64,000 nt of DNA from Escherichia coli (GTDB lineage Bacteria > Pseudomonadota > Gammaproteobacteria > Enterobacterales > Enterobacteriaceae): the NCBI GenBank assembly GCA_022969815.1, contig GCA_022969815.1_4535.1. One strand, given 5' to 3'. Both the position numbers and the translations under genes were made by a program. Shown piece by piece: positions 3,190 through 47,366 of the stretch; within the stretch, counting starts at the first letter, position 1; every line of letters begins with the position of its first letter. The notes under the pieces were generated by a model that saw only the letters and a list, made by a program, of their open reading frames with translations, was not told the DNA's origin and ran no database searches.

Positions 3190-3346
3190 GATAACCTCAT
3201 AGTAATGGTAATGCAAAGAGGAAGATGCAAGATCTTCCCATATTGATTATAATACCACAAATGTCGCCGTTATGTCAATGTAAAAATAATCCTTGACTAC
3301 CGTGATCCGCCTTGCTACACTGTATTTATTAACTAAGGAGGAAATT

Positions 3347-4360
3347 ATGGGCGTGATTAAAGGTTGGGACATTCAGAAGAAAGAATGTGAAGAAGTGGCA
3401 AGACCAGGTATTACTGTTCTTGGATTTGTTGAACCGTGGAATGGTGCACATACTAAACTGATGCTGAAATGTGAGAAGCATGGAGAATGGAATACAACCT
3501 CCATCAACAACTTCAAAAAGAATGGTTCTGGTTGTAATGGTTGTCGAGCAGATATATGTGGTGCGAGAGCAGAAGGGAATAGTTTTGCAAGTAAAAATGC
3601 TATCTCAGATGAGCAACACATTAAGGATTTCTTGGCTACCGGATTGTTTGCAGAGGGGACGACTTTCGTAAACACAGGGGTGAAAACAAAAGCTAAGAAC
3701 GATTGTTTCTGGAAAGTAACTTGTCCTGTTTGTGCGGTAGACGAATACTCCAAAGCAGGATTAGGAGATGGATCTTTTGAAGCCAGAACTTCGCATATGA
3801 AACGGGGTCAAATCCCTTGTCGTTGCTCTCCTCGGCATATCTACTCTAAAGATCAGTGGATGTTTAGATTTCAGTTAATGTGTGAAGAAAAAGGTTATAC
3901 TTTTGTCAAGGCCATTTATGAAGGGGAAGCATACTCTCACGGAGATGTTGAATACACCTGTCCAGAACACGGCTCGCAACGCATGACTGTGAAGAACCTC
4001 ATGTCAGGTAAAGGTTGTCCAGAGTGTGCCAATAAAACGCAACAGTTCTGTTATATTAATGAAGTGTACGATGAAGATAATAATCTCTGTGCTCTTAAAT
4101 TTGGAATTGCCAATGATGCTGAACGTAGGATCAAAGGTCAGAATTCGAAGAATGCTTTCATAATGAAACAGAAAGTTGTCTACTTCTTTGATGATATCAA
4201 GTCGTGCCGAGCAGCGGAGAGGGAGTGTTTGAAGCTGTTGGAGTGCGGTGTTGTGAATAAATTTCAGTTGAAGGATGGACACACAGAAACAACACACCTT
4301 TCAAACTACACCAAGATTGTCGATATCTTTGAAGAATTTGGAGGGATGTTACAGAAATGA
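3347..4360 (+). CDS. zinc-ribbon repeat protein with C-terminal T5orf172/GIY-YIG-like segment; possible free-standing homing-endonuclease-like gene
   Basis: AAGGAGG RBS before ATG at 3347; three repeats of C-x-x-H-G...G-x-G-C-x-x-C; C-terminal LCALKFGIANDAERRIKGQ resembles GIY-YIG-like core; only plus-strand gene inside the minus-strand virion module. Confidence 0.4.
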   Translation: MGVIKGWDIQKKECEEVARPGITVLGFVEPWNGAHTKLMLKCEKHGEWNTTSINNFKKNGSGCNGCRADICGARAEGNSFASKNAISDEQHIKDFLATGLFAEGTTFVNTGVKTKAKNDCFWKVTCPVCAVDEYSKAGLGDGSFEARTSHMKRGQIPCRCSPRHIYSKDQWMFRFQLMCEEKGYTFVKAIYEGEAYSHGDVEYTCPEHGSQRMTVKNLMSGKGCPECANKTQQFCYINEVYDEDNNLCALKFGIANDAERRIKGQNSKNAFIMKQKVVYFFDDIKSCRAAERECLKLLECGVVNKFQLKDGHTETTHLSNYTKIVDIFEEFGGMLQK

Positions 4361-4388
4361 AAAAAGGGGCCGAAGCCCCTTTCTTTTA
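4361..4388. terminator. bidirectional rho-independent terminator
   Basis: AGGGGCCGAAGCCCCT hairpin flanked by A-run upstream and T-run downstream, between convergent genes. Confidence 0.6.
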
Positions 4389-5174
4389 GTTGCTGTTTGA
4401 CTGTCCACTTAACGTCTGCAAAGTCAGGCTCTGCATGAACGATTCAGAAGAAGCTTTAGCATTGAAATCAATGTAATCGGAAAGACGAGAAACATCACTT
4501 TGTAATGTCAAGGCAACTTCCGGTGTCAACGTAATGTTGAAGGTCGGGTTTGTCTGGTACTGCATAGCTTTAGATTGGAAATTCTGTGCGTCTTGACGAA
4601 TAGATTCTCCGGTAAACGTATAATTGTTTGCCGCAGATCCTGATCCATCTTTCTCAAAATATCCCACAACCTTATCCCAAATAGAAACACCTTCATCATT
4701 TTTGGAAGTGAGTCCATCTGAAACCGCCGCAAAAGGGTTAAAGGTTCTGTTCGCCATATCCCACACACTGGCATCTTTTCCTGTAGCTGCATAAATGAAA
4801 CCGAAGTTCTCGCGCATGAAGCTATCCAACCCTGTAAAGATGTTCAGGAACATGGTTGCAGTTTTGGCTGTGTTGACAGTTAACTTACCCATCTCTTCAC
4901 CCAAATCTTTCGCTACCTTATCCAACATTTTTACGTTGTCCAACCAGGACTCGTCTTTAGGTATTGCGTTCATAAATCCTTCCAGGAAATAGTTCTGCAT
5001 ACCTTGCCCGACCAAGCCTACCGTGGCAGTCAAGCGTGTGTACTCTTTAGAAGCTTCCATTTGCTCATTGGTCAACGCAGCACCAGTACGTTGAAGCATA
5101 CGGAGGGTTTCTTGGAAGCCTTCTCCGTTCTTGCTAAACATACGTTGGTAATGCATGAGGTCGTCACCAAGGTT
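4386..5174 (-). CDS. tail tape measure protein, exon 2 (3' exon; 5' boundary modelled)
   Basis: Reading frame of ORF 4386..5156 stays open upstream to about 5182; helix-rich sequence continuous in character with exon 1; modelled exon start at 5174 (NLGDDLMHYQ...). Confidence 0.5.
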   Translation of the reverse strand, partial: NLGDDLMHYQRMFSKNGEGFQETLRMLQRTGAALTNEQMEASKEYTRLTATVGLVGQGMQNYFLEGFMNAIPKDESWLDNVKMLDKVAKDLGEEMGKLTVNTAKTATMFLNIFTGLDSFMRENFGFIYAATGKDASVWDMANRTFNPFAAVSDGLTSKNDEGVSIWDKVVGYFEKDGSGSAANNYTFTGESIRQDAQNFQSKAMQYQTNPTFNITLTPEVALTLQSDVSRLSDYIDFNAKASSESFMQSLTLQTLSGQSNSN

Positions 5175-5529
5175 CTCAAGGCTTTGATTTTAAAGGAGTT
5201 TTTGTTAGTAACTCCCCCAGTTCTAACTTCGAACTGCTGCAACTTTCATTGCAGGAAAGACTATATCTTCATCTACGTGAGATGCTTCGCACTTCGCCCC
5301 ACTTGGGGCTACTCTACTCGCTTCCGTATCACTACGTGCTTTCGATAGTCGTTGAACTTTACTCTCGGTGAGAGTCTTAGCTGCTGATTACCCATTGTAC
5401 CATCTTGACAATTTTCAAGCATTCACGCCTGGCGTTGCCGCCTACGTTGTAGCTTGTCAAGCTTTAGGGAGTTCCAGCAATTCACGAAGTTTTCATTACC
5501 TTATCGCTAAGGTACGGCCCCTGTTAAGA
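5175..5529 (-). mobile_element. group I intron (ORF-less, subgroup IA-like) interrupting tape measure gene; boundaries approximate (+/-15 nt)
   Basis: Minus-strand RNA carries the conserved core elements in canonical order: P AAUUGCUGGAA (plus 5472-5482), Q AAUCAGCAGC (5380-5389), R GUUCAACGACUAUCGA (5342-5357), S AAGAUAUAGUCU (5258-5269), then P9-like hairpins; no ORF in the 355 nt. Confidence 0.7.
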
Positions 5530-6690
5530 AAGGCGACCAATCTGTGCCGAGTTCATGCCACGACGCTCACCTTCATTCACAGTTGCCTGTATGAAAGCTA
5601 ATGGATCGTTCTGCATGTGTTTAATTTGTGAAGGGTTCCAACCGAACATGTTCATGATATCGTTGATACCGTTATCACCCCCACGCCATTTTCCTTTTTT
5701 CTCATCCCATTCAGCAGCCATCATCGAGTTACCCAAACGTTCACGAACGTCTTTAAGGTTATCGATTGACTTAATAATGTTTGCCGAGTCAACACCGTTC
5801 TGTTCACCCCAAGCAGTCATTGTCATAATGGCGTTAGCGTTTGCCTGAACGTTCTCTGCACCACGACCTATGAACTTGATACGATCGTTAGCAGTTTGTA
5901 ACGTATTACCTACAACAGAACCACCTGCAAACAGTCCTGCACCAATCATGGATGAAACCATCATGCGAGGATTAAGGCCCAAAGCGCCATCTCTCATTTG
6001 CGAGTATTGACGATCTTTATCTCGGCGTTGCTGTGCCAGTTCACGTTTATGGTTACGCTCAATATCACGTAGCTCTTTATCACGCATACGCTGACGTTGT
6101 TTGGCTTCTGCTTCCAATTCACGACGAACTCGACGACGACCACGTACTTCATCTTCGATATCTTTTACTTTCTCTCGGTGAGATCGACGAAGATTATCAA
6201 GCTGGTGGGCCAGTGTCTGGTTCATACGTTGAAGAGTGATATCTCCACGTTTGTACGATTCTACAGAAGCATCCATGATTTGTTTGGCTTGGCGTTGCGC
6301 ATCTAAGGAAGCTTTGGTATACTGCATACCACGCTTTTCAAAGTTCTCCATACGGAGATTGCCTAAATCATTACGACGAGCCTGTAGCTCGGCAGCGCGT
6401 TCTTCTGGAGTTTTCTTTCCTGGTTTAGCTGGACGACCAGGACCGGAGGTAGTTCCACCACCTTTTGGAGTAGGAGGGGGAGCAGGGCGAGCAGGGAAAG
6501 TCTGCGCTTTACGCATTTCTCTTTCGATCTCTTTCATCTGCTGCCTAAACTTACTCATGTTTAAGGTGGGCTGTATTCTTTCAGCGAACTTTTTAACACT
6601 CTCTACAGAATCTTTGGCTTCTTTGAGACTGTTCTTGTCCACCTTAAATGTGACTACGTTACTGATTTTAGCCGCGTTTATATCTAACAA
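5530..6690 (-). CDS. tail tape measure protein, exon 1 (5' exon; 3' boundary modelled)
   Basis: TTG start at 6690 with GAGGA RBS; charged coiled-coil-like sequence with Pro/Gly-rich linker; unspliced frame hits a stop at 5524-5526 just inside the intron. Confidence 0.5.
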
Positions 6691-6705: not shown

Positions 6706-7044
6706 TTAGTGGATCATTTTCTTAAACATGTCTTGCATTTGAGTAGCGTTCTCTTGTTGCTTTCTCTTTATTGAAGTGTCTTTGGTGTACAGAGCTTCAA
6801 TATATTCCTCATAAGTGAGGTACTCGTACATCCCCAATAGATAATCCACCCCGTATTGATCCAGGGTGGAGCGTGTTTCCGAGGTATTCTTCACGACCTT
6901 GCAGAGAATGATCTCATACCACTTCAACGTAAGGGTCTTCTCTGCTGTTTCCATCGCATGACGAATGGCTGGGCTTAGTTCGTTGCCAGATCCTGAACTG
7001 CTTGGAACTGGGTCAACAGTTTTCCGAAACCTCGTTTGAAAAAA
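6706..7044 (-). CDS. tail assembly chaperone, -1 frameshift extension ORF (GT-like product when fused to upstream ORF)
   Basis: Frame of ORF 6706..6954 is the -1 frame of ORF 6975..7457 and stays open back to the slippery heptamer at 7038-7044. Confidence 0.45.
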   Translation of the reverse strand, partial: FFQTRFRKTVDPVPSSSGSGNELSPAIRHAMETAEKTLTLKWYEIILCKVVKNTSETRSTLDQYGVDYLLGMYEYLTYEEYIEALYTKDTSIKRKQQENATQMQDMFKKMIH

Positions 7045-7457
7045 GGGCCGTAGTTCACCTCAAGAACTTTTGCTGTCAAGTCGAGGACAAGTTCTGGGTG
7101 AGCAAAGAAGAGTTCGTCGAAGTTATCAGATACGTTGTGACCTGCTTCGGTATATACTTCATCTAAGATCTTACGGAGGAACACAGTAAGGTTCTTCTCT
7201 TCAAGACCAGAGAACAATTGAATAAGTGCCATTGCAATACGAGATTCCAGATCTTCTTCAGCCGACATAAGGGCAGTATTGTACATGGTCATAGGTACAG
7301 CTAAAACGCTACCGAGTTCTGGGATACGCTCGAAGACCTTTGAAGGACTCCATTTCAGAATACGGAAGGTTACAAAACGGGTTTCATCTAAGTAGATTTT
7401 TACGATTTCTTCTGGACGTGCATATTGTTTGATAGTATCATCTTGTTGTTCGGACAT
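6975..7457 (-). CDS. tail assembly chaperone (G-like), putative
   Basis: 160-aa acidic ORF between tail tube and tape measure genes; contains slippery site near its 3' end. Confidence 0.45.
   Translation of the reverse strand: MSEQQDDTIKQYARPEEIVKIYLDETRFVTFRILKWSPSKVFERIPELGSVLAVPMTMYNTALMSAEEDLESRIAMALIQLFSGLEEKNLTVFLRKILDEVYTEAGHNVSDNFDELFFAHPELVLDLTAKVLEVNYGPFFKRGFGKLLTQFQAVQDLATN
7038..7044 (-). promoter_or_regulatory. -1 programmed ribosomal frameshift slippery heptamer U_UUU_UUC
   Basis: Minus-strand sequence GGC CCU UUU UUC AAA in the 0 frame of the chaperone gene; -1 frame open for about 110 further codons. Confidence 0.45.
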
Positions 7458-7479: not shown

Positions 7480-7503
7480 ATAAAAAGGGCATTTCTGCCC
7501 TTT
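7480..7503 (-). terminator. rho-independent terminator after tail tube gene
   Basis: GGGCATTTCTGCCC hairpin followed on minus strand by T-run. Confidence 0.5.
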
Positions 7504-7508
7504 CGTTA

Positions 7509-7988
7509 TTATTGAATGGTCAGTGCGGAGATAGAGTTAAGAACACTCATACCTACACCAACTTCATTACGTAACAGGCTTGCATCTTTCAGACCGATAA
7601 CCCATTGGTTCTCTGTAATCATTTCGCCCATAGTGTCTTCAGGTTGAGATTGAATCCAACCAATGGTGCTAATGTAGTAACCACGAGGATCTTCCAGGTA
7701 AACACTGAATGCTACTTGACGAGTAGAATACATTGTTTGAGCATAAGTTGCCAAAACTTCGTTTGCCGGAGATGTACGTTGCAGAGAAATAGTCATGGTG
7801 CCGAGACGGTTGCGGCTAAGAGCCAGAGAAACATCGCCATCAGTACCAGCATATGGGTTAATAATATCGTTGGCTTTTGCAATTACAATTTTAGTGTCGG
7901 TTGCAAAACCCCACGGCTCCCATCCACCCAGGGACAGAACGATTTGGGAAGGATCATAGGCCATTACGCCAGTAAGCATTTTATCCAA
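7509..7988 (-). CDS. tail tube protein, putative
   Basis: 159-aa ORF immediately downstream of sheath-sized gene and followed by terminator; synteny. Confidence 0.45.
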   Translation of the reverse strand: MDKMLTGVMAYDPSQIVLSLGGWEPWGFATDTKIVIAKANDIINPYAGTDGDVSLALSRNRLGTMTISLQRTSPANEVLATYAQTMYSTRQVAFSVYLEDPRGYYISTIGWIQSQPEDTMGEMITENQWVIGLKDASLLRNEVGVGMSVLNSISALTIQ

Positions 7989-8034: not shown

Positions 8035-9408
8035 TTAGTTTGCAGTACGGTTGGTCAGGACGTGAACCTGAACCTTAACGTAATGGAAGAATCCTGCGTA
8101 AACGTATTCAATCTTCATGCCGTCAACCAGACGCTGATTAATCTGCGAATCAGTCATGTCAGCACGAGAAGGAAGGTAAACGATAGGCTTCAGGTCAACA
8201 CGCAGTCCAGTTTCTTCTGAAACAACCACTTCGTTAGAAATAGAGCCATTCAGAATACCAACTTGGATCGGGTTAGCCAGAACCGCTTGTTTAATCAGAG
8301 CCAGACCATTGGAAGTAGCACGAACACCACCACCCAACATTGACTGCTGTTTGAACAGAGTGAACAGAGATTCTTCGGTACGAGCTTTGAACCACAGAGC
8401 GTGAACTACGTAGTCAGCAAAGAAACCGTTAACCATCAGACCATCGCGGTAGAACAGAGTTGCGTGTTCTTTACGGTAGATGTTACCATTCTGTTGAACA
8501 ATGTTATTTTCCGCAGTCTGACCGAGTTTCTCGATTTCAACTCCAACCAGAGTTTTACCATGCAGAGTCGTAGTACCAGGCTGTGCAGAGCAGATAGAAC
8601 CAACAACAGCAGCTTCTGGGAATACAGAGTCTGCGTCGCTCATCCACAGAGCAAAACAGGTATTGACATAGCCAAGGTCATTTAAACGCTCAAGAACGTT
8701 GTCTTCGGCTTTAGTAGTGATACCAACGTCTGAACTGGAGAAGAAGTATACTTTGTCATTCTCTTCTACCCAAGCAGCTACGTCAAGAATATCTTCAACA
8801 GCATGGGAGTCAGACAGAACCCAGAACCAGCTACTATCAATATCGTGCAGAGCGGAGATATCTTCGGTAATACCGTTAGCGTAGACGGTTTCTTTAGCGA
8901 AGCCGCTTGCATCCAGAGAAGCGTATTTGCCTACAACTGGAGAAACAGTGATCACAGCGCCATCGTTAGCAACGGTAAACAGACCACCGTAAACTACGTC
9001 TGCATTGATCATTTCTGTCAGACCAACAACGATTTCTTGTGCTGTTGCAGTGTCGTCAGCAATGAATTTGAAATCTTTCTTGTTCTTGCCTTCTTTGATA
9101 GTGATAACATATGTTGCACTATCTTCAACTGCTGGGGTCAGGGTAAAGTTTGTTACTTCACGCTTACCAACAATCACTTGACTTGGTGCGAATAATCCGT
9201 TAAACAGTTTAACTGCCATGATATAGGCTGGATCATTAACACCGTAACCCGCTTCCAGAAGTGCGTCAGAAGAGGTGTAATATTCAATCGCGTTACCAGT
9301 GACAGTCTGACCAGTAAGGATCAGGGGAATGTCAAACTGGGTTTCACGGATTGATGTAGCTCCGTACAGTAAAGTTACGGTTGCTACCTTTTCACGAAAA
9401 GTTGCCAT
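8035..9408 (-). CDS. tail sheath protein, putative
   Basis: 457-aa ORF upstream of tube gene; size and position typical of contractile-tail sheath. Confidence 0.5.
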   Translation of the reverse strand: MATFREKVATVTLLYGATSIRETQFDIPLILTGQTVTGNAIEYYTSSDALLEAGYGVNDPAYIMAVKLFNGLFAPSQVIVGKREVTNFTLTPAVEDSATYVITIKEGKNKKDFKFIADDTATAQEIVVGLTEMINADVVYGGLFTVANDGAVITVSPVVGKYASLDASGFAKETVYANGITEDISALHDIDSSWFWVLSDSHAVEDILDVAAWVEENDKVYFFSSSDVGITTKAEDNVLERLNDLGYVNTCFALWMSDADSVFPEAAVVGSICSAQPGTTTLHGKTLVGVEIEKLGQTAENNIVQQNGNIYRKEHATLFYRDGLMVNGFFADYVVHALWFKARTEESLFTLFKQQSMLGGGVRATSNGLALIKQAVLANPIQVGILNGSISNEVVVSEETGLRVDLKPIVYLPSRADMTDSQINQRLVDGMKIEYVYAGFFHYVKVQVHVLTNRTAN

Positions 9409-21568: not shown

Positions 21569-21647
21569 TGGAGGCGGGAATCGGATTCGAACCGATGATC
21601 TCCAGCATATGAAACTGGCGAGGACGACCAAACTCCTCTATCCCGCT
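21569..21647 (-). tRNA. tRNA-Met (anticodon CAU; Ile2 not excluded)
   Basis: T-arm ATCGG-TTCGAAT-CCGAT, anticodon loop UUCAUAU, encoded CCA; folded by eye. Confidence 0.55.
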
Positions 21648-21651
21648 ATTA

Positions 21652-21724
21652 GGTGTCCCGTGCTGGATTCGAACCAGCATCACAATAGTTGTGGATCTCT
21701 TATCCTGTAAGTCTAACGGGAAAC
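21652..21724 (-). tRNA. tRNA-like element, anticodon arm unresolved
   Basis: Canonical T-arm GCTGG-TTCGAAT-CCAGC and acceptor-like 3' end, but no canonical anticodon stem-loop found. Confidence 0.3.
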
Positions 21725-21798
21725 TGGTTGTTTCGACAAGAATCGAACTTGTATCTCACGATTATCAGTCGTGGGTTCTACCATTGAACTACGAAACA
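21725..21798 (-). tRNA. tRNA-Ile (anticodon GAU)
   Basis: Acceptor UGUUUCG/CGAAACA, D-arm GUUC-AAUGGUA-GAAC, anticodon loop CUGAUAA, T-arm, encoded CCA. Confidence 0.6.
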
Positions 21799-21821
21799 TT
21801 TAATTGGTAGGAATTGCAGGA

Positions 21822-22163
21822 TTACCAAGTAACATCATGCCCTGAATGGAAAGCGCAATGACAGTTCTTACAGAGTAAGACGCAATTCTCTATCTCTTTG
21901 TCTATTCTTGCAAGTGACCAGCCACGCATAGATCCGTAGTTCTTATCTTTTATTGCTGGGTCAAGATGGTGAATATCCAAAGATTCTTCATACTGATTAA
22001 ATCCGCAAGCGGCGCACTTACCTCCTAACTTATCACGAGCATATTTTTTCTTATGTTGTCCAAGTTCTGTCGTATACTTATTATGACAGGCTCCACAAAT
22101 AGATTTCTTATGTCCGTAGAATTTCGTAGGATCTTCTTCGCCACAATGACTGCATTTACACAT
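21822..22163 (-). CDS. HNH endonuclease
   Basis: 113 aa; Cys-rich MCKCSHCGEED...CGACHNKY...CKNCHCAFHSGH with zinc-finger/HNH spacing; embedded in tRNA cluster. Confidence 0.55.
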   Translation of the reverse strand: MCKCSHCGEEDPTKFYGHKKSICGACHNKYTTELGQHKKKYARDKLGGKCAACGFNQYEESLDIHHLDPAIKDKNYGSMRGWSLARIDKEIENCVLLCKNCHCAFHSGHDVTW

Positions 22164-22184
22164 ACAAAAAATCTCTTTACAAAT

Positions 22185-22260
22185 TGGTCAGCCTAAGAAG
22201 ACTTGAACTTCTAACCTCACCGCCCCAAACGGCGCACTCTTCCAATTGAGCTATAGGCTG
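22185..22260 (-). tRNA. tRNA-Pro (anticodon UGG)
   Basis: Acceptor CAGCCUA/UAGGCUG, anticodon stem CGCCG/CGGUG with loop UUUGGGG, T-loop UUCAAGU, encoded CCA. Confidence 0.6.
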
Positions 22261-22460
22261 TTAATAAAAAATCTCACGTCTTATACAAGCTAACCTTTTG
22301 CCTGATGCATGAAATTTAAATACATTCTAAAGGTACACCGTAAAAGATTGTCGGGGCGATACTTCAAAAACATACCGATCCGTAGATCGATAATCAGACA
22401 AACTTCGACGGCTCCTCGTTTTTAACTTCACACTTAAGGTAGTGACTCACCTTTGTTATA

Positions 22461-22536
22461 TGGCTGGTCTGTCTGGATTTGAACCAAACCTACGACAGTC
22501 AAAGTGTCGTGTGCTACCGGACTACAATACAAACCA
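22461..22536 (-). tRNA. tRNA-Gln (anticodon UUG)
   Basis: Starts with U1-A72 pair as in bacterial tRNA-Gln; anticodon stem CGACA/UGUCG, loop CUUUGAC; T-loop UUCAAAU; encoded CCA. Confidence 0.6.
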
Positions 22537-22626
22537 TTTAATGAAGGGCAACCAGAAGAGGTGTGAGAGAAGGAGAAAACCATGAGTAAAAGAGAAAGTT
22601 TTCTGGCAACCCTTTATTAAATAATT

Positions 22627-22700
22627 TGGAGCGTTCTACGAGTTTCGAACTCGTGCCGCCGACTTGGAAGGACGGAATGCTACCGCTACACCAAGAACGC
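22627..22700 (-). tRNA. tRNA-Gly (anticodon UCC)
   Basis: Acceptor GCGUUCU/AGAACGC, anticodon loop CUUCCAA, T-arm ACGAG-UUCGAAA-CUCGU, encoded CCA. Confidence 0.55.
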
Positions 22701-22929
22701 CCTACATCTTTACTATACTACATTTTACTATCAGTTGTCAATAGTTTTATTGGGCGGGACAGTGACGAGTATCCCATTGGGTGACTAACCCTACGTTCGG
22801 TTGTGATTAATCTCCTGGGTGTCGCTTGCAACACTGGAAAACTCTCACGTCGATGGGAGAATCCGCTTCTTCTTTACCCCATCCAACCCTACTCCGGTCA
22901 AGTTTCAGGTGACTCTTTTTGTGATCAAC

Positions 22930-23260
22930 ACAATACTAAGAACACTGTCTTTCGAGCAGACCTTGTGCACAGGATACGACGATCAATCACAGTGCTCTTA
23001 ATGTTGTGCCACAATAATAAGAACATTCAAACGATGACCACTTTTAGTGGAGAGATTTACAAAATGCTCTTAATGTTGTGTTGTGAATACTAACCTCGGA
23101 ACTCATTACCGCGCTTTGGCTCGACCTTATTACAGGTTAGTGAATGTCTTTCGTCCGATTACATTCAATAAATTTGCTTTCTTCACAACGATAAGAACAC
23201 TTAACAGAAGATAGGTCTGATTGCCTCGGATGATTTCTCAGTAGCCTAAATGTTCTTACC
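22930..23260. repeat. repeat-containing spacer within tRNA cluster (TAAGAACA motif x4, 15-bp direct repeat x2)
   Basis: TAAGAACA at 22937, 23018, 23192 and inverted at 23251; GCTCTTAATGTTGTG at 22994-23008 and 23066-23080. Confidence 0.45.
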
Positions 23261-23268
23261 TGTTATGT

Positions 23269-23344
23269 TGGTGCTCCAAGTAGGACTCGAACCTACGACC
23301 TCATGCTTACAAGGCAAGTGCTCTACCAACTGAGCTATTGAAGC
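23269..23344 (-). tRNA. tRNA-Thr (anticodon UGU)
   Basis: Acceptor GCUUCAA/UUGGAGC, D-arm AGCUCAGUUGGUAGAGC, anticodon loop CUUGUAA, T-arm GUAGG-UUCGAGU-CCUAC, encoded CCA. Confidence 0.6.
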
Positions 23345-23696
23345 GTATTGCGCCCCTTCAGCCATGCTTGATGTTGACCAGAACACAGTTAAACTGTGGG
23401 AGGAGGAACACCGCAGGGGGCTTCAGTTGGACGACTTACAGGGAGCGACCCTGTTTCTTTTCTGGGACTCGGCAGGATTCGATACCTGCAATTCCAGAAG
23501 CCTCTTGGCAACTGAGGGTTTACCTTAACCCTACAAGTCCATAATTCTTAAATACTTTGGAGCCTTACTGATAAACCGTTAGTTTGTAACATAGCGTATT
23601 TCCATTCTGGGGCACCGCCTGTGAATGTAATTCCAATACAAACTTTCTCAAGATCAAACCAATTATCAAATAACATTACAACCTCCAGTTTGAATT

Positions 23697-23780
23697 TGGT
23701 GTGAGATGATGGATTCGAACCACCGCGCCTTTCAGAAGGGATTTACAGTCCCCCGCAATCGACCACTCTGCCAATCTCAC
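23697..23780 (-). tRNA. tRNA-Tyr (anticodon GUA)
   Basis: Acceptor GUGAGAU/AUCUCAC, anticodon loop CUGUAAA, long variable arm, T-arm GGUGG-UUCGAAU-CCAUC, encoded CCA. Confidence 0.6.
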
Positions 23781-23904
23781 AAAATTGTTTTTAAAGTAGC
23801 CAGTATTCGCGGTACTGACTATGCGGTATCGGAGATGGTGAGAGCCATCTGCCGAAAGTTTACTCTGTTAAAGTAAGAAACAACAAGCTACATTAAAAAC
23901 AACT

Positions 23905-23990
23905 TGGCGGTAGATGTAGGACTCGAACCTACACGCCGTTTCCGACTACAGTTTAGCAAACTGTTGTGGCTACCATTTCACCAATCTACC
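23905..23990 (-). tRNA. tRNA-Ser (anticodon GCU)
   Basis: Acceptor GGUAGAU/AUCUACC, anticodon stem ACAGU/ACUGU with loop UUGCUAA, long variable arm, encoded CCA. Confidence 0.6.
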
Positions 23991-23996
23991 TAAATT

Positions 23997-24086
23997 TGGA
24001 GGAAGGTAATGGAGTCGAACCATCACCGTATCTCTACAATGGGCCAGGGTTCAAATCTGGTTGCGTACCACTACGCCCTACCTTCC
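23997..24086 (-). tRNA. tRNA-Ser (anticodon UGA; long variable arm, Leu not excluded)
   Basis: Acceptor GGAAGGU/ACCUUCC, anticodon loop UUUGAAC with one stem mismatch, long variable arm, T-loop UUCGACU, encoded CCA. Confidence 0.5.
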
Positions 24087-24321
24087 ATACATTTAATCTA
24101 ACATAAAACGATGTTGATTGTCAACACCTTTTAAAACATTTTATTATGAATGGTGACTCCACCAACCCCCGTTCTCCACGAACGGTACTCTTCGAGCAAT
24201 CTACCCTTGCAATCAAACGTTGTACACCGTTAGCTTACTCATGCATATTTGCCTCATTCTCTGCCAACCATGATCAGTGGTAGGGTTCAAATCACTTGAG
24301 CTAATTCATACTAAAATGTTC

Positions 24322-24396
24322 TGGTGTCTTTACAAGGAATCGAACCTTGACTAAGAGTTTAGAAGACTCCTGTGCTATCCATTACACCATAAAGAC
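24322..24396 (-). tRNA. tRNA-Arg (anticodon UCU)
   Basis: Acceptor GUCUUUA/UAAAGAC, anticodon stem GGAGU/ACUCU with loop CUUCUAA, T-loop UUCGAUU, encoded CCA. Confidence 0.6.
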
Positions 24397-24398
24397 GT

Positions 24399-24473
24399 TG
24401 GTGGCCCTGACTGGTTTCGATCCAGTTGCCTATCGGTTATGAGCCGACTGCTCTCCCATTGAGCTACAGGGCC
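24399..24473 (-). tRNA. tRNA-Met (anticodon CAU; elongator or Ile2-type)
   Basis: Acceptor GGCCCUG/CAGGGCC with G1-C72, D-arm AGCUCAAUGGGAGAGC, anticodon loop CUCAUAA, encoded CCA. Confidence 0.6.
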
Positions 24474-45292: not shown

Positions 45293-45490
45293 ATGAAAGA
45301 CCAAATGATTAATGGACCTCGTGTAACAGTCAGTCCTAAAACTTTTGCATCTCTTCTGGACGACACTGGTGAGGTTTATACTTACACAAGAGATTCACTG
45401 CCTCTGCCTGAAAGTGCACAGGGTTCACGTTCGCTTTTTTATAAAGGTGTTCTTTTTACGGAAGCAAAAGAAGACAAGGAGACTAAATGA
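45293..45490 (+). CDS. hypothetical protein
   Basis: AAGGAG RBS. Confidence 0.5.
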   Translation: MKDQMINGPRVTVSPKTFASLLDDTGEVYTYTRDSLPLPESAQGSRSLFYKGVLFTEAKEDKETK

Positions 45491-46479
45491 GATACCTGGT
45501 AACAGGTGGTCTTGGTTTCATTGGGAGCGCCGTAGTGCGCTCTCTTTGTCAAGATCCTAATAACGAAGTTTTTGTTATTGATAAAATGGGCTACGCAGCC
45601 GATATTGAAAATGTAGGGGATATCACTCACGCCAAACTAAGTATGACAGATTTGGCAAACGAAGCACAGGTCAAAAGTTTAGTGGTAGAATGCAACCCTG
45701 ATTTCATCATTCATTTAGCGGCAGAGAGTCATGTGGACAACTCTATCAAGAATCCACGAGCTTTCATCGACTCCAATATCATCGGTACATATAATCTGTT
45801 AGAAGCTGCAAGGCTTCTTCCTAAGAACAAGCTGAAGATGTTTGTACACGTCTCTACAGACGAAGTGTACGGTGATATGGAGGACTCTGGTGCTCCATTT
45901 ACCGAAGAGACAGCTTATGCTCCTTCAAGCCCATACAGCGCGTCTAAGGCGGCATCTGATCACCTTGTCAAAGCTTGGCACCGTACTTACGATTTGCCTG
46001 TAGTGATAACCAACTGTTCCAATAACTTTGGGCCTTACCAACACCCTGAAAAATTGATTCCGAAAGTGATCACGAACATCTTGACAAGCAAAGAAATTCC
46101 AGTGTACGGTAAAGGCGATCAAGTAAGAGATTGGCTTTTTGTTGAGGACCATGCGCGAGCTATTCTTCAAGTAGCTTCTGGCGGCGAACCTGGACAAACT
46201 TACAACGTAGGCACACGTAATCCTAAAACCAATATGGAGATCATCTATATGATTTGTGATTACATGGATGCCGTACACCCGCAAAGTGGAACCTACCCGT
46301 CTTCGAGTTTAATAACTTTTGTTGAAGATCGTAAAGGACATGACTTGCATTATGAAATCAACCCTGCTAAGATTGAATCTGAACTGGGTTGGAGTGCAAA
46401 CTCCACATTTGAACAAGACCTTTACTCTACGATAGAGTGGTATTTAAACAACCCTCAATGGTGGAGAGAAAAGATTTAA
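45487..46479 (+). CDS. rmlB: dTDP-glucose 4,6-dehydratase
   Basis: N-terminal [10 protein letters not shown] Rossmann motif, YSASK catalytic motif; 330 aa. Confidence 0.8.
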
Positions 46480-46487
46480 GGAGGGTT

Positions 46488-47366
46488 ATGAAAGGTATTA
46501 TTTTGGCGGGAGGAAGTGGAACCCGCCTACACCCTGTAACACGCAGTGTGAGCAAGCAATTGCTCCCTGTGTATGACAAACCTATGATTTATTATCCTTT
46601 ATCAGTCTTGATGTTGGCAGATATTAAGGATATCTTAATCATCACAACCCCAGGCGATCAGGAAGATTTTGAGTATCTTCTTGGAGATGGATCTATGTTT
46701 GGGATAAAAATCACTTACGCAATGCAGTCTGAACCACGAGGTCTTGCAGATGCTTTCATCATCGGTAAAGATTTTATTGAGGAAGATTCCGTTGCCCTTA
46801 TTTTAGGGGATAACTTGTTCTTCGGACAAAGTTTCGGAAAACTTCTTATCCAAGCCAGCGAAATGGTGGATGTTTGGGGTGGAGCTTGTATCTTCGGGTA
46901 TCTGGTGAAAGATCCTGAACGATTCGGTGTTGTTGAGTTCGGAAGTAATCGCCAAGCTATCTCTATTGAAGAGAAACCGGAACATCCTAAATCAGACTAT
47001 GCCGTCACGGGTTTGTATTTCTATGACAACTCTGTTGTTCAACGTGCATTGGAAGTAACTCCTTCTGATCGTGGAGAACTGGAGATCACAGATATCAATC
47101 GCAGCTACCTCGAAGACAGAAAGTTACAAGTTGAAGTTCTTGGAAGAGGATTCACTTGGCTGGATACAGGGACACACGCCAGTCTAATGGAAGCAGGTCA
47201 ATTCGTGCAGACTATTGAGAACTGCCAAGGATTGAAGATTGCGTGCCTGGAAGAGATTGCTTTCAAAAAAGGGTGGATTTCTTTAGAGACTTTGGTGTAT
47301 CATGGCAACTCATTGAAGAAAACAGAGTACGGGCAATATCTGTTAAAATTAGCGGAGGGTAAATGA
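46488..47366 (+). CDS. rmlA: glucose-1-phosphate thymidylyltransferase
   Basis: N-terminal [16 protein letters not shown] signature; AAGGAGGG RBS before ATG at 46488; 292 aa. Confidence 0.85.

Follow-up and report, generated by a model that had tools for sequence, protein, structure and literature searches.

A conserved slippery heptamer very probably directs G/GT-type programmed −1 ribosomal frameshifting between two tail assembly chaperone reading frames of a large contractile-tailed Escherichia phage

The tail assembly chaperone gene of this phage DNA is followed, just before the tape measure gene, by a short open reading frame, and the question is whether this is a gene of its own or a −1 extension of the chaperone reached by ribosomes that slip back near the end of it. 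The region lies in a window of 64,000 nucleotides, by which we mean the whole stretch of DNA analysed, and is 98.6% identical to Escherichia phages phiWec188/190, 96% identical to 'Pseudomonas' phage PsgM04F and ~80% identical to phages of the phAPEC8/phi92 type (Stephanstirmvirinae, roughly 150-kb myoviruses). The genes run on the minus strand in the order sheath, tube, chaperone (G), extension (T, ending at 6706) and tape measure, which starts at 6690 (Table 1), and this synteny is shared by 14 annotated relatives. As in systems of the G/GT type, the G/T pair is found between the tube and tape measure genes and its upstream member is a tail assembly chaperone: the 160-residue G protein matches Pfam Phage_TAC_15 (4.3e-23) and phrog_3840 'tail assembly chaperone' (4e-51). 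A terminator is annotated in the records of phAPEC8, Meda and Mordin at the place equivalent to the terminator-like hairpin listed here.

Table 1 Positions of the features discussed, in the numbering of the 64,000-nucleotide window
Feature	Coordinates	Strand	Basis or remarks
Sheath	9408..8035	−	phrog_205
Tube	7988..7509	−	phrog_280 / Pfam KPP10_Orf10
Terminator-like hairpin and U-run between tube and chaperone genes	7484..7503	−	Sequence and hairpin search
Tail assembly chaperone G, 160 aa, 0-frame product	6975..7457	−	ATG 7457, TAA 6977..6975
TGA closing the −1 frame	7060..7062	−	Frame analysis
SD-like GAGGUG, possible 5' stimulator (inferred)	7056..7061	−	11 nt upstream of U_UUU_UUC
Slippery heptamer C_CCU_UUU, in phase, Stephanstirmvirinae-type relatives only	7041..7047	−	Overlaps U_UUU_UUC
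Slippery heptamer U_UUU_UUC, in phase, universally conserved among relatives with the FF motif	7038..7044	−	X_XXY_YYZ phase
−1 extension T, 110 aa (QTRFRK..., Ser/Gly-rich linker, conserved domain)	6706..7038	−	Stop TAA 6708..6706
Dual-coding overlap: last 20 codons of G (frame 0) and start of T extension (frame −1)	6975..7037	−	
82-aa ORF	6954..6706	−	ATG 6952..6954, gene-caller start
Tape measure exon 1	5531..6690	−	TTG start 6690, SD −6.3 kcal/mol; phrog_16051 'tail length tape measure protein' 1.3e-189
Group I intron, 349 nt (predicted)	5182..5530	−	Rfam RF00028 and alignment to the uninterrupted PsgM04F gene
Tape measure exon 2	4386..5181	−	phrog_16051 positions 407–658, 1.9e-49

An earlier note on this DNA had placed a heptamer U_UUU_UUC in the 0 frame, within GGC CCU UUU UUC AAA, and translation of the sequence bears out every one of its coordinates. 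The 0-frame codons of G at 7049..7035 are GGC (7049–7047), CCU (7046–7044), UUU (7043–7041), UUC (7040–7038) and AAA. The note did not mention C_CCU_UUU, with which the heptamer forms a tandem site, C CCU UUU UUC; a slip on either gives the same protein. Frame analysis also upheld the note's reading that the −1 frame is open from the site through the downstream ORF and that this ORF lies exactly in the −1 frame of G. The −1 frame opens at 7059, only 5 codons upstream of the slip site, and its first stop after that is the TAA at 6708..6706; the overlap is 27 codons long. Both heptamers fall in X_XXY_YYZ phase inside this overlap, where G/GT-type systems carry their slip site. According to a study of heptamers in E. 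coli, the class H_HH.U_UU.Y, which includes both of these, is among the most efficient, both heptamers gave more than 0.1% efficiency without stimulators, and U_UU.U_UU.C is one that IS elements use (Sharma et al., PMC4066793).

In the predicted slip C7038 is read twice, and conceptual translation gives a GT fusion of 250 residues, made up of G residues 1–140 and 110 residues of T. The junction reads GPFFQTR and the tryptic junction peptide of the predicted fusion is VLEVNYGPFFQTR. In the model of G the last confident helix spans residues 121–141 (H121–141) and residues 143–150 are disordered; the slip site (codons 137–140) ends the folded G domain in this model, so GT would keep the whole of it. 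The part of T downstream of the ATG at 6954 matches phrog_16039 (2e-36), and a Pfam search of the T part gave no family. A search of solved structures by sequence found no significant match.

How often such an arrangement would arise by chance can be estimated from the window itself. In-phase XXXYYYZ heptamers number 60 in its 72 gene-like ORFs (16,729 codons), and 11 of these belong to the efficient E. coli class. This window estimate gives a chance of ~6.6e-4 per codon, or ~0.02 per 27-codon overlap, of meeting an efficient heptamer. Within the window, it is only in the chaperone gene that an efficient heptamer precedes a long −1 extension, one that continues for 89 codons after G ends and has no start signal of its own. 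A second candidate, T_TTA_AAC at the end of ORF 45487..46479, is followed by a −1 extension of 295 codons; it was rejected, since what follows is simply an ordinary neighbouring gene, which begins with the ATG at 46489 behind a strong SD, GGAGGG. It is the conservation of the chaperone site across relatives that puts it far beyond chance.

Homologous loci were compared in 14 annotated phages, 38 IMG/VR contigs and four more distant phages. The in-phase T_TTT_TTC is invariant in all relatives keeping the FF motif, at 55 loci in 34 distinct contexts, counts which overstate the number of independent events because the loci are phylogenetically related, and which may be biased toward FF, not toward particular codons, as one of the two peptide patterns used for IMG/VR contained FF. 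It ranges over Stephanstirmvirinae, Vequintavirinae, the Felix-O1-like Ounavirinae (Meda, Mordin) and Plateaulakevirus, with the identity of G falling to ~28%. In every complete locus the −1 frame continues for 82–98 codons after the end of G, even through stretches that records label intergenic, and the extension in the +1 frame at the same loci is at most 20 codons.

The conservation can be followed to single codon positions. When 18 diverse sequences are aligned by codon, F139 is encoded by TTT and F140 by TTC in all of them (18/18 each). The residue before them varies between Pro, Cys and Ser, yet its codon (CCT, TGT or AGT) has T as its third base throughout. Two further Phe columns that are conserved, taken as controls, are mixed (9 TTC and 6 TTT in one, 11 TTC and 6 TTT in the other), and adjacent Tyr and Gly codons vary too. 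For sequences of the Stephanstirmvirinae type, the synonymous codon identity of ~0.5 along the gene climbs to 0.88 at codons 133–147. Downstream of the heptamer each frame keeps a peptide of its own, GF(G/A) in frame 0 and RFR in frame −1, which is the pattern that coding in two frames would produce. Residues N135, Y136, F139, F140 and G143 are invariant in the chaperone, and part of the nucleotide conservation is therefore driven by the protein, to which the FF dipeptide could matter as well. Judging from these alignments, the needs of the protein sequence do not fully account for how well the site and its frame relation are kept in diverged relatives.

One relative departs from the pattern. 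The homologue in Rheinheimera phage Barba9A (Barbavirus) has neither FF nor the U-run (HYGCLTSGKSF), and in the same overlap it carries an in-phase G_GGA_AAG, the heptamer of the lambda type, with a −1 extension of 74 codons. This exchange of one heptamer for another argues that the frameshift itself is under selection, and also that slippage is ribosomal rather than by the polymerase.

The latter point bears on the alternative that survives best, that RNA polymerase adds one U on the T6 run, so that a minority of the mRNA encodes the same 250-residue protein, wholly or partly accounting for it. The site does contain a homopolymer run, insertion of one U would give the identical GPFFQTR junction, and poly-T and poly-A runs are known sites of such slippage (PMC5009743). 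The bacterial cases, however, are described on runs of ~9 A or T (PMC5009743), and the run here is of six. The codon phase of the run is strictly kept among relatives, a point of importance to re-pairing of tRNAs and not to a polymerase, the base 3' of the run is always C and the run is never longer in the 34 contexts, and the Barbavirus site is a heptamer of the classical ribosomal kind that contains no long homopolymer. We consider polymerase slippage improbable; if it were true, C CCU UUU UUC would be a dual-use transcription and translation recoding signal in several families of large myoviruses.

A second alternative, somewhat less probable again, is that G and T are two separate proteins, the 82-residue ORF being translated independently from the ATG at 6954 and the heptamer being irrelevant. 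An ATG is indeed present there, in most relatives gene callers place a 'hypothetical protein' of its own here, and phrog_16039 was built from such ORFs. The ATG, however, has no SD: its duplex with the anti-SD is +0.2 kcal/mol, compared with −5.5 to −11.4 kcal/mol for 12 of the 13 neighbouring starts tested and −3.3 for the other one. Nor is its position kept among relatives, in which the first ATG of the −1 frame is found anywhere from +13 to +104 codons past the heptamer and, in phi92 and L027, only after nearly the whole of the conserved T domain. The −1 frame is open and conserved upstream of the annotated starts, and in several phages the conserved T domain starts upstream of any start codon. 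The annotated 'second gene' varies from 132 to 267 nt across database records, and two records annotate nothing there. What is found is thus a second ORF that overlaps the 3' end of G in the −1 frame with neither a conserved start nor an SD, as in the G/GT type, and the ATG at 6954 is probably not a real initiation site.

It is very improbable that the arrangement is a coincidence, with FF kept for the sake of the protein and the heptamer and open −1 frame having no role in recoding. The five invariant residues noted above, through which the nucleotide conservation is partly protein-driven, would fit such a reading. Against it, three synonymous or free positions are fixed throughout, in contrast to the variable codons of other conserved Phe, Tyr and Gly residues, the third-base T is kept although the residue before FF is not, in every complete locus the −1 frame stays open for over 80 codons and encodes a conserved peptide, and the chance of an efficient in-phase heptamer in the overlap is low, as estimated above, in this window alone. 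The least credible explanation is an assembly or homopolymer error, G and T being really one ORF with a miscalled T-run: such runs are error-prone in some sequencing chemistries, but the same T6C, with a 0-frame stop 20–34 codons downstream, is seen in 55 independently sequenced genomes or contigs, and all 44 database homologues are ~160 residues long.

The locus is thus very probably a genuine programmed −1 ribosomal frameshift site of the G/GT type. The earlier note had likened it to the chaperone frameshift found upstream of tape measure genes, and this comparison is supported by the position of the genes, their frames, the invariant slip site and an annotated precedent in Felix-O1-like phages (see below). 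A natural in-frame fusion of G and T was sought with the 250-residue sequence as query against 5.8 billion proteins and none was found, all 44 hits being G proteins of ~160 residues.

We then turn to the elements that might stimulate the slip. The earlier note had looked to a stimulatory RNA element downstream of the heptamer, and here it was not borne out. The minimum free energy of the single-sequence fold downstream of the heptamer is no better than that of shuffled sequences (z = +0.39), and folds of the alignments gave −4.25 kcal/mol for the Stephanstirmvirinae type and −0.64 kcal/mol for Vequintavirinae, with essentially no covariation. Rfam has no match at the slip site. The only local hairpin pairs the U-run with a downstream A-run, and a stronger one, which is not conserved, begins 19 nt past the heptamer; no stem-loop or pseudoknot of the dnaX/IS type was found 5–9 nt downstream.

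Upstream the position is different. The SD-like GAGGUG has a predicted duplex with the 3' end of 16S rRNA of −9.9 kcal/mol, and a GGAG/GAGG core is found 13–14 nt upstream of the heptamer in 26 of the 34 distinct contexts. It is absent in the other 8, and the element is missing from the Certrevirus and Mydovirus-type relatives. The Glu codon within it is GAG in 13/16 sequences, compared with 5/15 at a control Glu column. The element coincides, however, with conserved Leu-Glu-Val codons, and constraint on the protein could explain its conservation. A role for GAGGUG as a 5' stimulator is plausible; 5' SD stimulators are a feature of dnaX and of ~56% of IS elements (PMC5009743). It is conceivable that the phage's own tRNA-Pro(UGG), at 22185..22260, adjusts how readily ribosomes slip on C_CCU_UUU.

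This arrangement has a close parallel in that of phage lambda, whose gpG/gpGT frameshift was reportedly described by Levin, Hendrix and Casjens in 1993 and by Xu, Hendrix and Duda in 2004 and is reviewed in PMC5009743. In both cases two overlapping ORFs lie between the major tail or tube gene and the tape measure gene. The lambda site is not known to need a 3' RNA structure either. The heptamer differs, G_GGA_AAG in lambda and U_UUU_UUC (with C_CCU_UUU) here, and the present phage is a contractile-tailed one of roughly 150 kb with a possible SD-like stimulator upstream. The chaperone, of Pfam Phage_TAC_15, has no detectable sequence similarity to lambda G. Another parallel is phage P2, in which gpE and gpE+E' are made by a −1 frameshift on T_TTT_TTG, as Christie et al. 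reportedly found in 2002. P2 too has a contractile tail, and its shift, likewise by −1 and on a heptamer with a U-run, also takes place immediately before the tape measure gene; its protein family is unrelated at the sequence level and the last base of its heptamer differs. The dnaX and IS cassettes share with this site the combination of a heptamer with an SD-like element ~10–14 nt upstream and differ in their 3' stem-loop or pseudoknot, of which none is detectable here. As there is no 3' structure, a low efficiency is expected rather than one of ~50%.

Among phages with homologous chaperones the frameshift has been annotated in the Felix-O1-like Salmonella phage Meda (MH586731) and Citrobacter phage Mordin (KT363872), in which the chaperone is related to a Vequintavirinae G (tblastn 3e-6) and an identical in-phase T_TTT_TTC is found at the homologous xFF position, with GGAGG 13 nt upstream. 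Their GenBank records give a two-piece, −1 joined 'tape measure chaperone frameshift product', the end of which is the end of the −1 frame found here. The G of these phages is shorter (132–133 residues), the overlap is 11–14 codons, and Ser (AGT) precedes FF. Homology between their T part and the present one is unsupported (hhalign probability 1.2%). The genome announcement of Citrobacter phage Moogle reports the frameshift as well (PMC4319497). A paper of December 2025 on Pseudomonas phage Adele argues that the chaperones of Vandenendeviridae and Andersonviridae, the families to which its frameshift analysis is limited, share a conserved −1 TAC-N/TAC-NC frameshift marked by an invariant GTTTTT, and relates these families structurally to Vequintavirinae (PMC12846349). 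By that paper's description the Pakpunavirus/Vandenendeviridae/Andersonviridae systems resemble the present one in having an open −1 frame in all alleles and a poly-T at the 3' end of the chaperone gene, and the Pakpunavirus-type downstream ORF is likewise misannotated as a hypothetical protein (PMC12846349).

We can therefore propose how the site may work, inferring the slippage and its consequences from the arrangement described and from the lambda system. Most ribosomes would read G to its own TAA and produce the 160-residue chaperone. A minority would slip back by 1 nt on C_CCU_UUU_UUC, where tRNA-Pro/tRNA-Phe or tRNA-Phe/tRNA-Phe could re-pair in the −1 frame, and would then read CAA ACG AGG... 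to the TAA at the end of T. The signal would consist of the tandem heptamer and probably the SD-like GAGGUG, with no 3' RNA structure. The resulting GT would be the complete folded G domain (1–140) followed by the Ser/Gly-rich linker and a conserved T domain of ~80 residues. By analogy with lambda gpG/gpGT, in which the G:GT ratio is ~30:1, G and the G part of GT may coat the tape measure protein encoded downstream, the T part may recruit the tube protein, and the frameshift may set a fixed, low ratio of GT to G (PMC5009743).

The tape measure gene itself shows a further feature. The earlier note took the frameshift as support for assigning this gene, and the assignment stands (phrog_16051 at 1e-189), with one correction: the gene is split into two ORFs, 6690..5524 and 5156..4386, which cover phrog_16051 positions 1–398 and 407–658, because a group I intron interrupts it. 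The Rfam model RF00028 matches in full at 5540..5237, with 84.6 bits (gathering score 50) and an E-value of 3.6e-21, and removal of the predicted intron restores the frame, both as expected of a group I intron. Exon 1 ends ...GGUCGCCU, its last base being U, and exon 2 starts CCUUGAG after the intron-terminal G. The predicted junction, 5531/5181, would restore GRLLENLGDDL as in PsgM04F and give a spliced product of 651 residues. No near-identical full-length copy of the intron was found among the phage records in the collection searched; the best matches, ~70–72% identical over the catalytic core, are in unrelated genes of other phages.

G/GT frameshifting is a classical phenomenon, and what is offered here is a correction of annotation, not a new mechanism; the understanding of how such frameshifting works is unchanged by it. 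The fusion is unannotated in the Stephanstirmvirinae and Vequintavirinae records that we examined (phAPEC8, phi92, rV5-like, PVP-SE1, CR8, phiTE, Hena1 and others), several of which show the −1 extension as a 'hypothetical protein' of arbitrary length or show nothing. In the literature on rV5, phi92 and Vequintavirinae chaperones we found no mention of a frameshift, the rV5 paper mentioning neither chaperone nor frameshift, and the searchable literature yielded no published experimental report of detection of the fusion in this phage or in any member of Stephanstirmvirinae or Vequintavirinae. A single rule would mend all of these records, namely that the two frames be joined at the T_TTT_TTC that lies in phase after NYGxFF. 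A good many of the phages concerned are candidates for therapy or biocontrol. For the phages themselves, the finding is of a recoding site whose nucleotides have stayed fixed although the surrounding protein is down to less than 30% identity, and of one lineage, Barbavirus, that has swapped the heptamer.

In the chaperone homologue of Rheinheimera phage Barba9A (MK719715, 1096..1566 and downstream), the Phe-Phe pair and the U-run that encodes it at the slip site are gone. The overlap holds instead an in-phase G_GGA_AAG, followed by a -1 extension of 74 codons, and neither the site nor the extension is annotated in the record. From the sequence, one slippery heptamer has apparently been swapped for another in this phage. 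One further heptamer in the window was considered and rejected as a frameshift site: an in-phase T_TTA_AAC in the plus-strand gene 45487..46479, ahead of a long -1 open reading frame. That frame is an ordinary neighbouring gene, running from 46489 onward with a strong Shine–Dalgarno (SD) sequence and an ATG of its own; the N-terminus of its product may resemble that of sugar-nucleotidyltransferases. Slippage on the C_CCU_UUU part of the site might conceivably involve the tRNA-Pro(UGG) of the phage tRNA cluster (listed with the other features in the table); there is no tRNA-Phe among the 11 genes of the cluster.

Features of the window discussed here, with positions and strands
Feature	Position	Strand	Remarks
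Endonuclease-like ORF, 355 aa	3293..4360	plus	follows the tape measure gene closely, in the opposite orientation
Group I intron, 349 nt	5182..5530	minus	Rfam RF00028, 84.6 bits; inside the tape measure gene
Terminator-like hairpin and U-run	7484..7503	minus	between the tube and chaperone genes
tRNA cluster, 11 genes	21569..24473	minus	Met (two), Ile, Pro(UGG), Gln, Gly, Thr, Tyr, Ser (two), Arg(UCU)

Splicing out of the group I intron at the predicted junction, which joins 5531 to 5181, would restore the tape measure frame to give a protein of 651 amino acids. The intron is absent from the six closest phage genomes, and no near-identical full-length copy of it was found among the phage collection records. 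The product of the nearby 355-aa ORF matches the CapR homology domain (5e-28) and phrog_681, ‘endonuclease’ (2e-55), together with a treble-clef zinc finger and, weakly, T5orf172, and appears to be a free-standing homing-type endonuclease. Judged by match spans, ~1.4 kb comprising both the intron and this ORF is missing in phiWec188/190, and only ~350 nt is missing from the same region in phiWec179/181/186.

The annotated tape measure CDS of PsgM04F (3202..5025 in our extract of OR584014) starts 148 nt past the stop codon of T, the -1 frame extension of the chaperone gene. Since a TTG with an SD sequence (GAGGAAA) stands ~15 nt past this stop in the window (at 6690) and in its relatives, the annotated start has probably been set too far downstream. 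The same record is named ‘Pseudomonas phage PsgM04F’, with Pseudomonas coronafaciens as the labelled host, yet over this region it shares 96% identity with phages of E. coli; many MG0656xx ‘Campylobacter phage’ records likewise group with E. coli phAPEC8/rV5-like genomes. On these similarities the host labels of both look doubtful.

Upstream of the chaperone gene, the position of the terminator-like hairpin is one at which the phAPEC8, Meda and Mordin records carry an annotated terminator. The hairpin suggests that transcription of the chaperone and tape measure genes may be attenuated relative to that of the sheath and tube genes.
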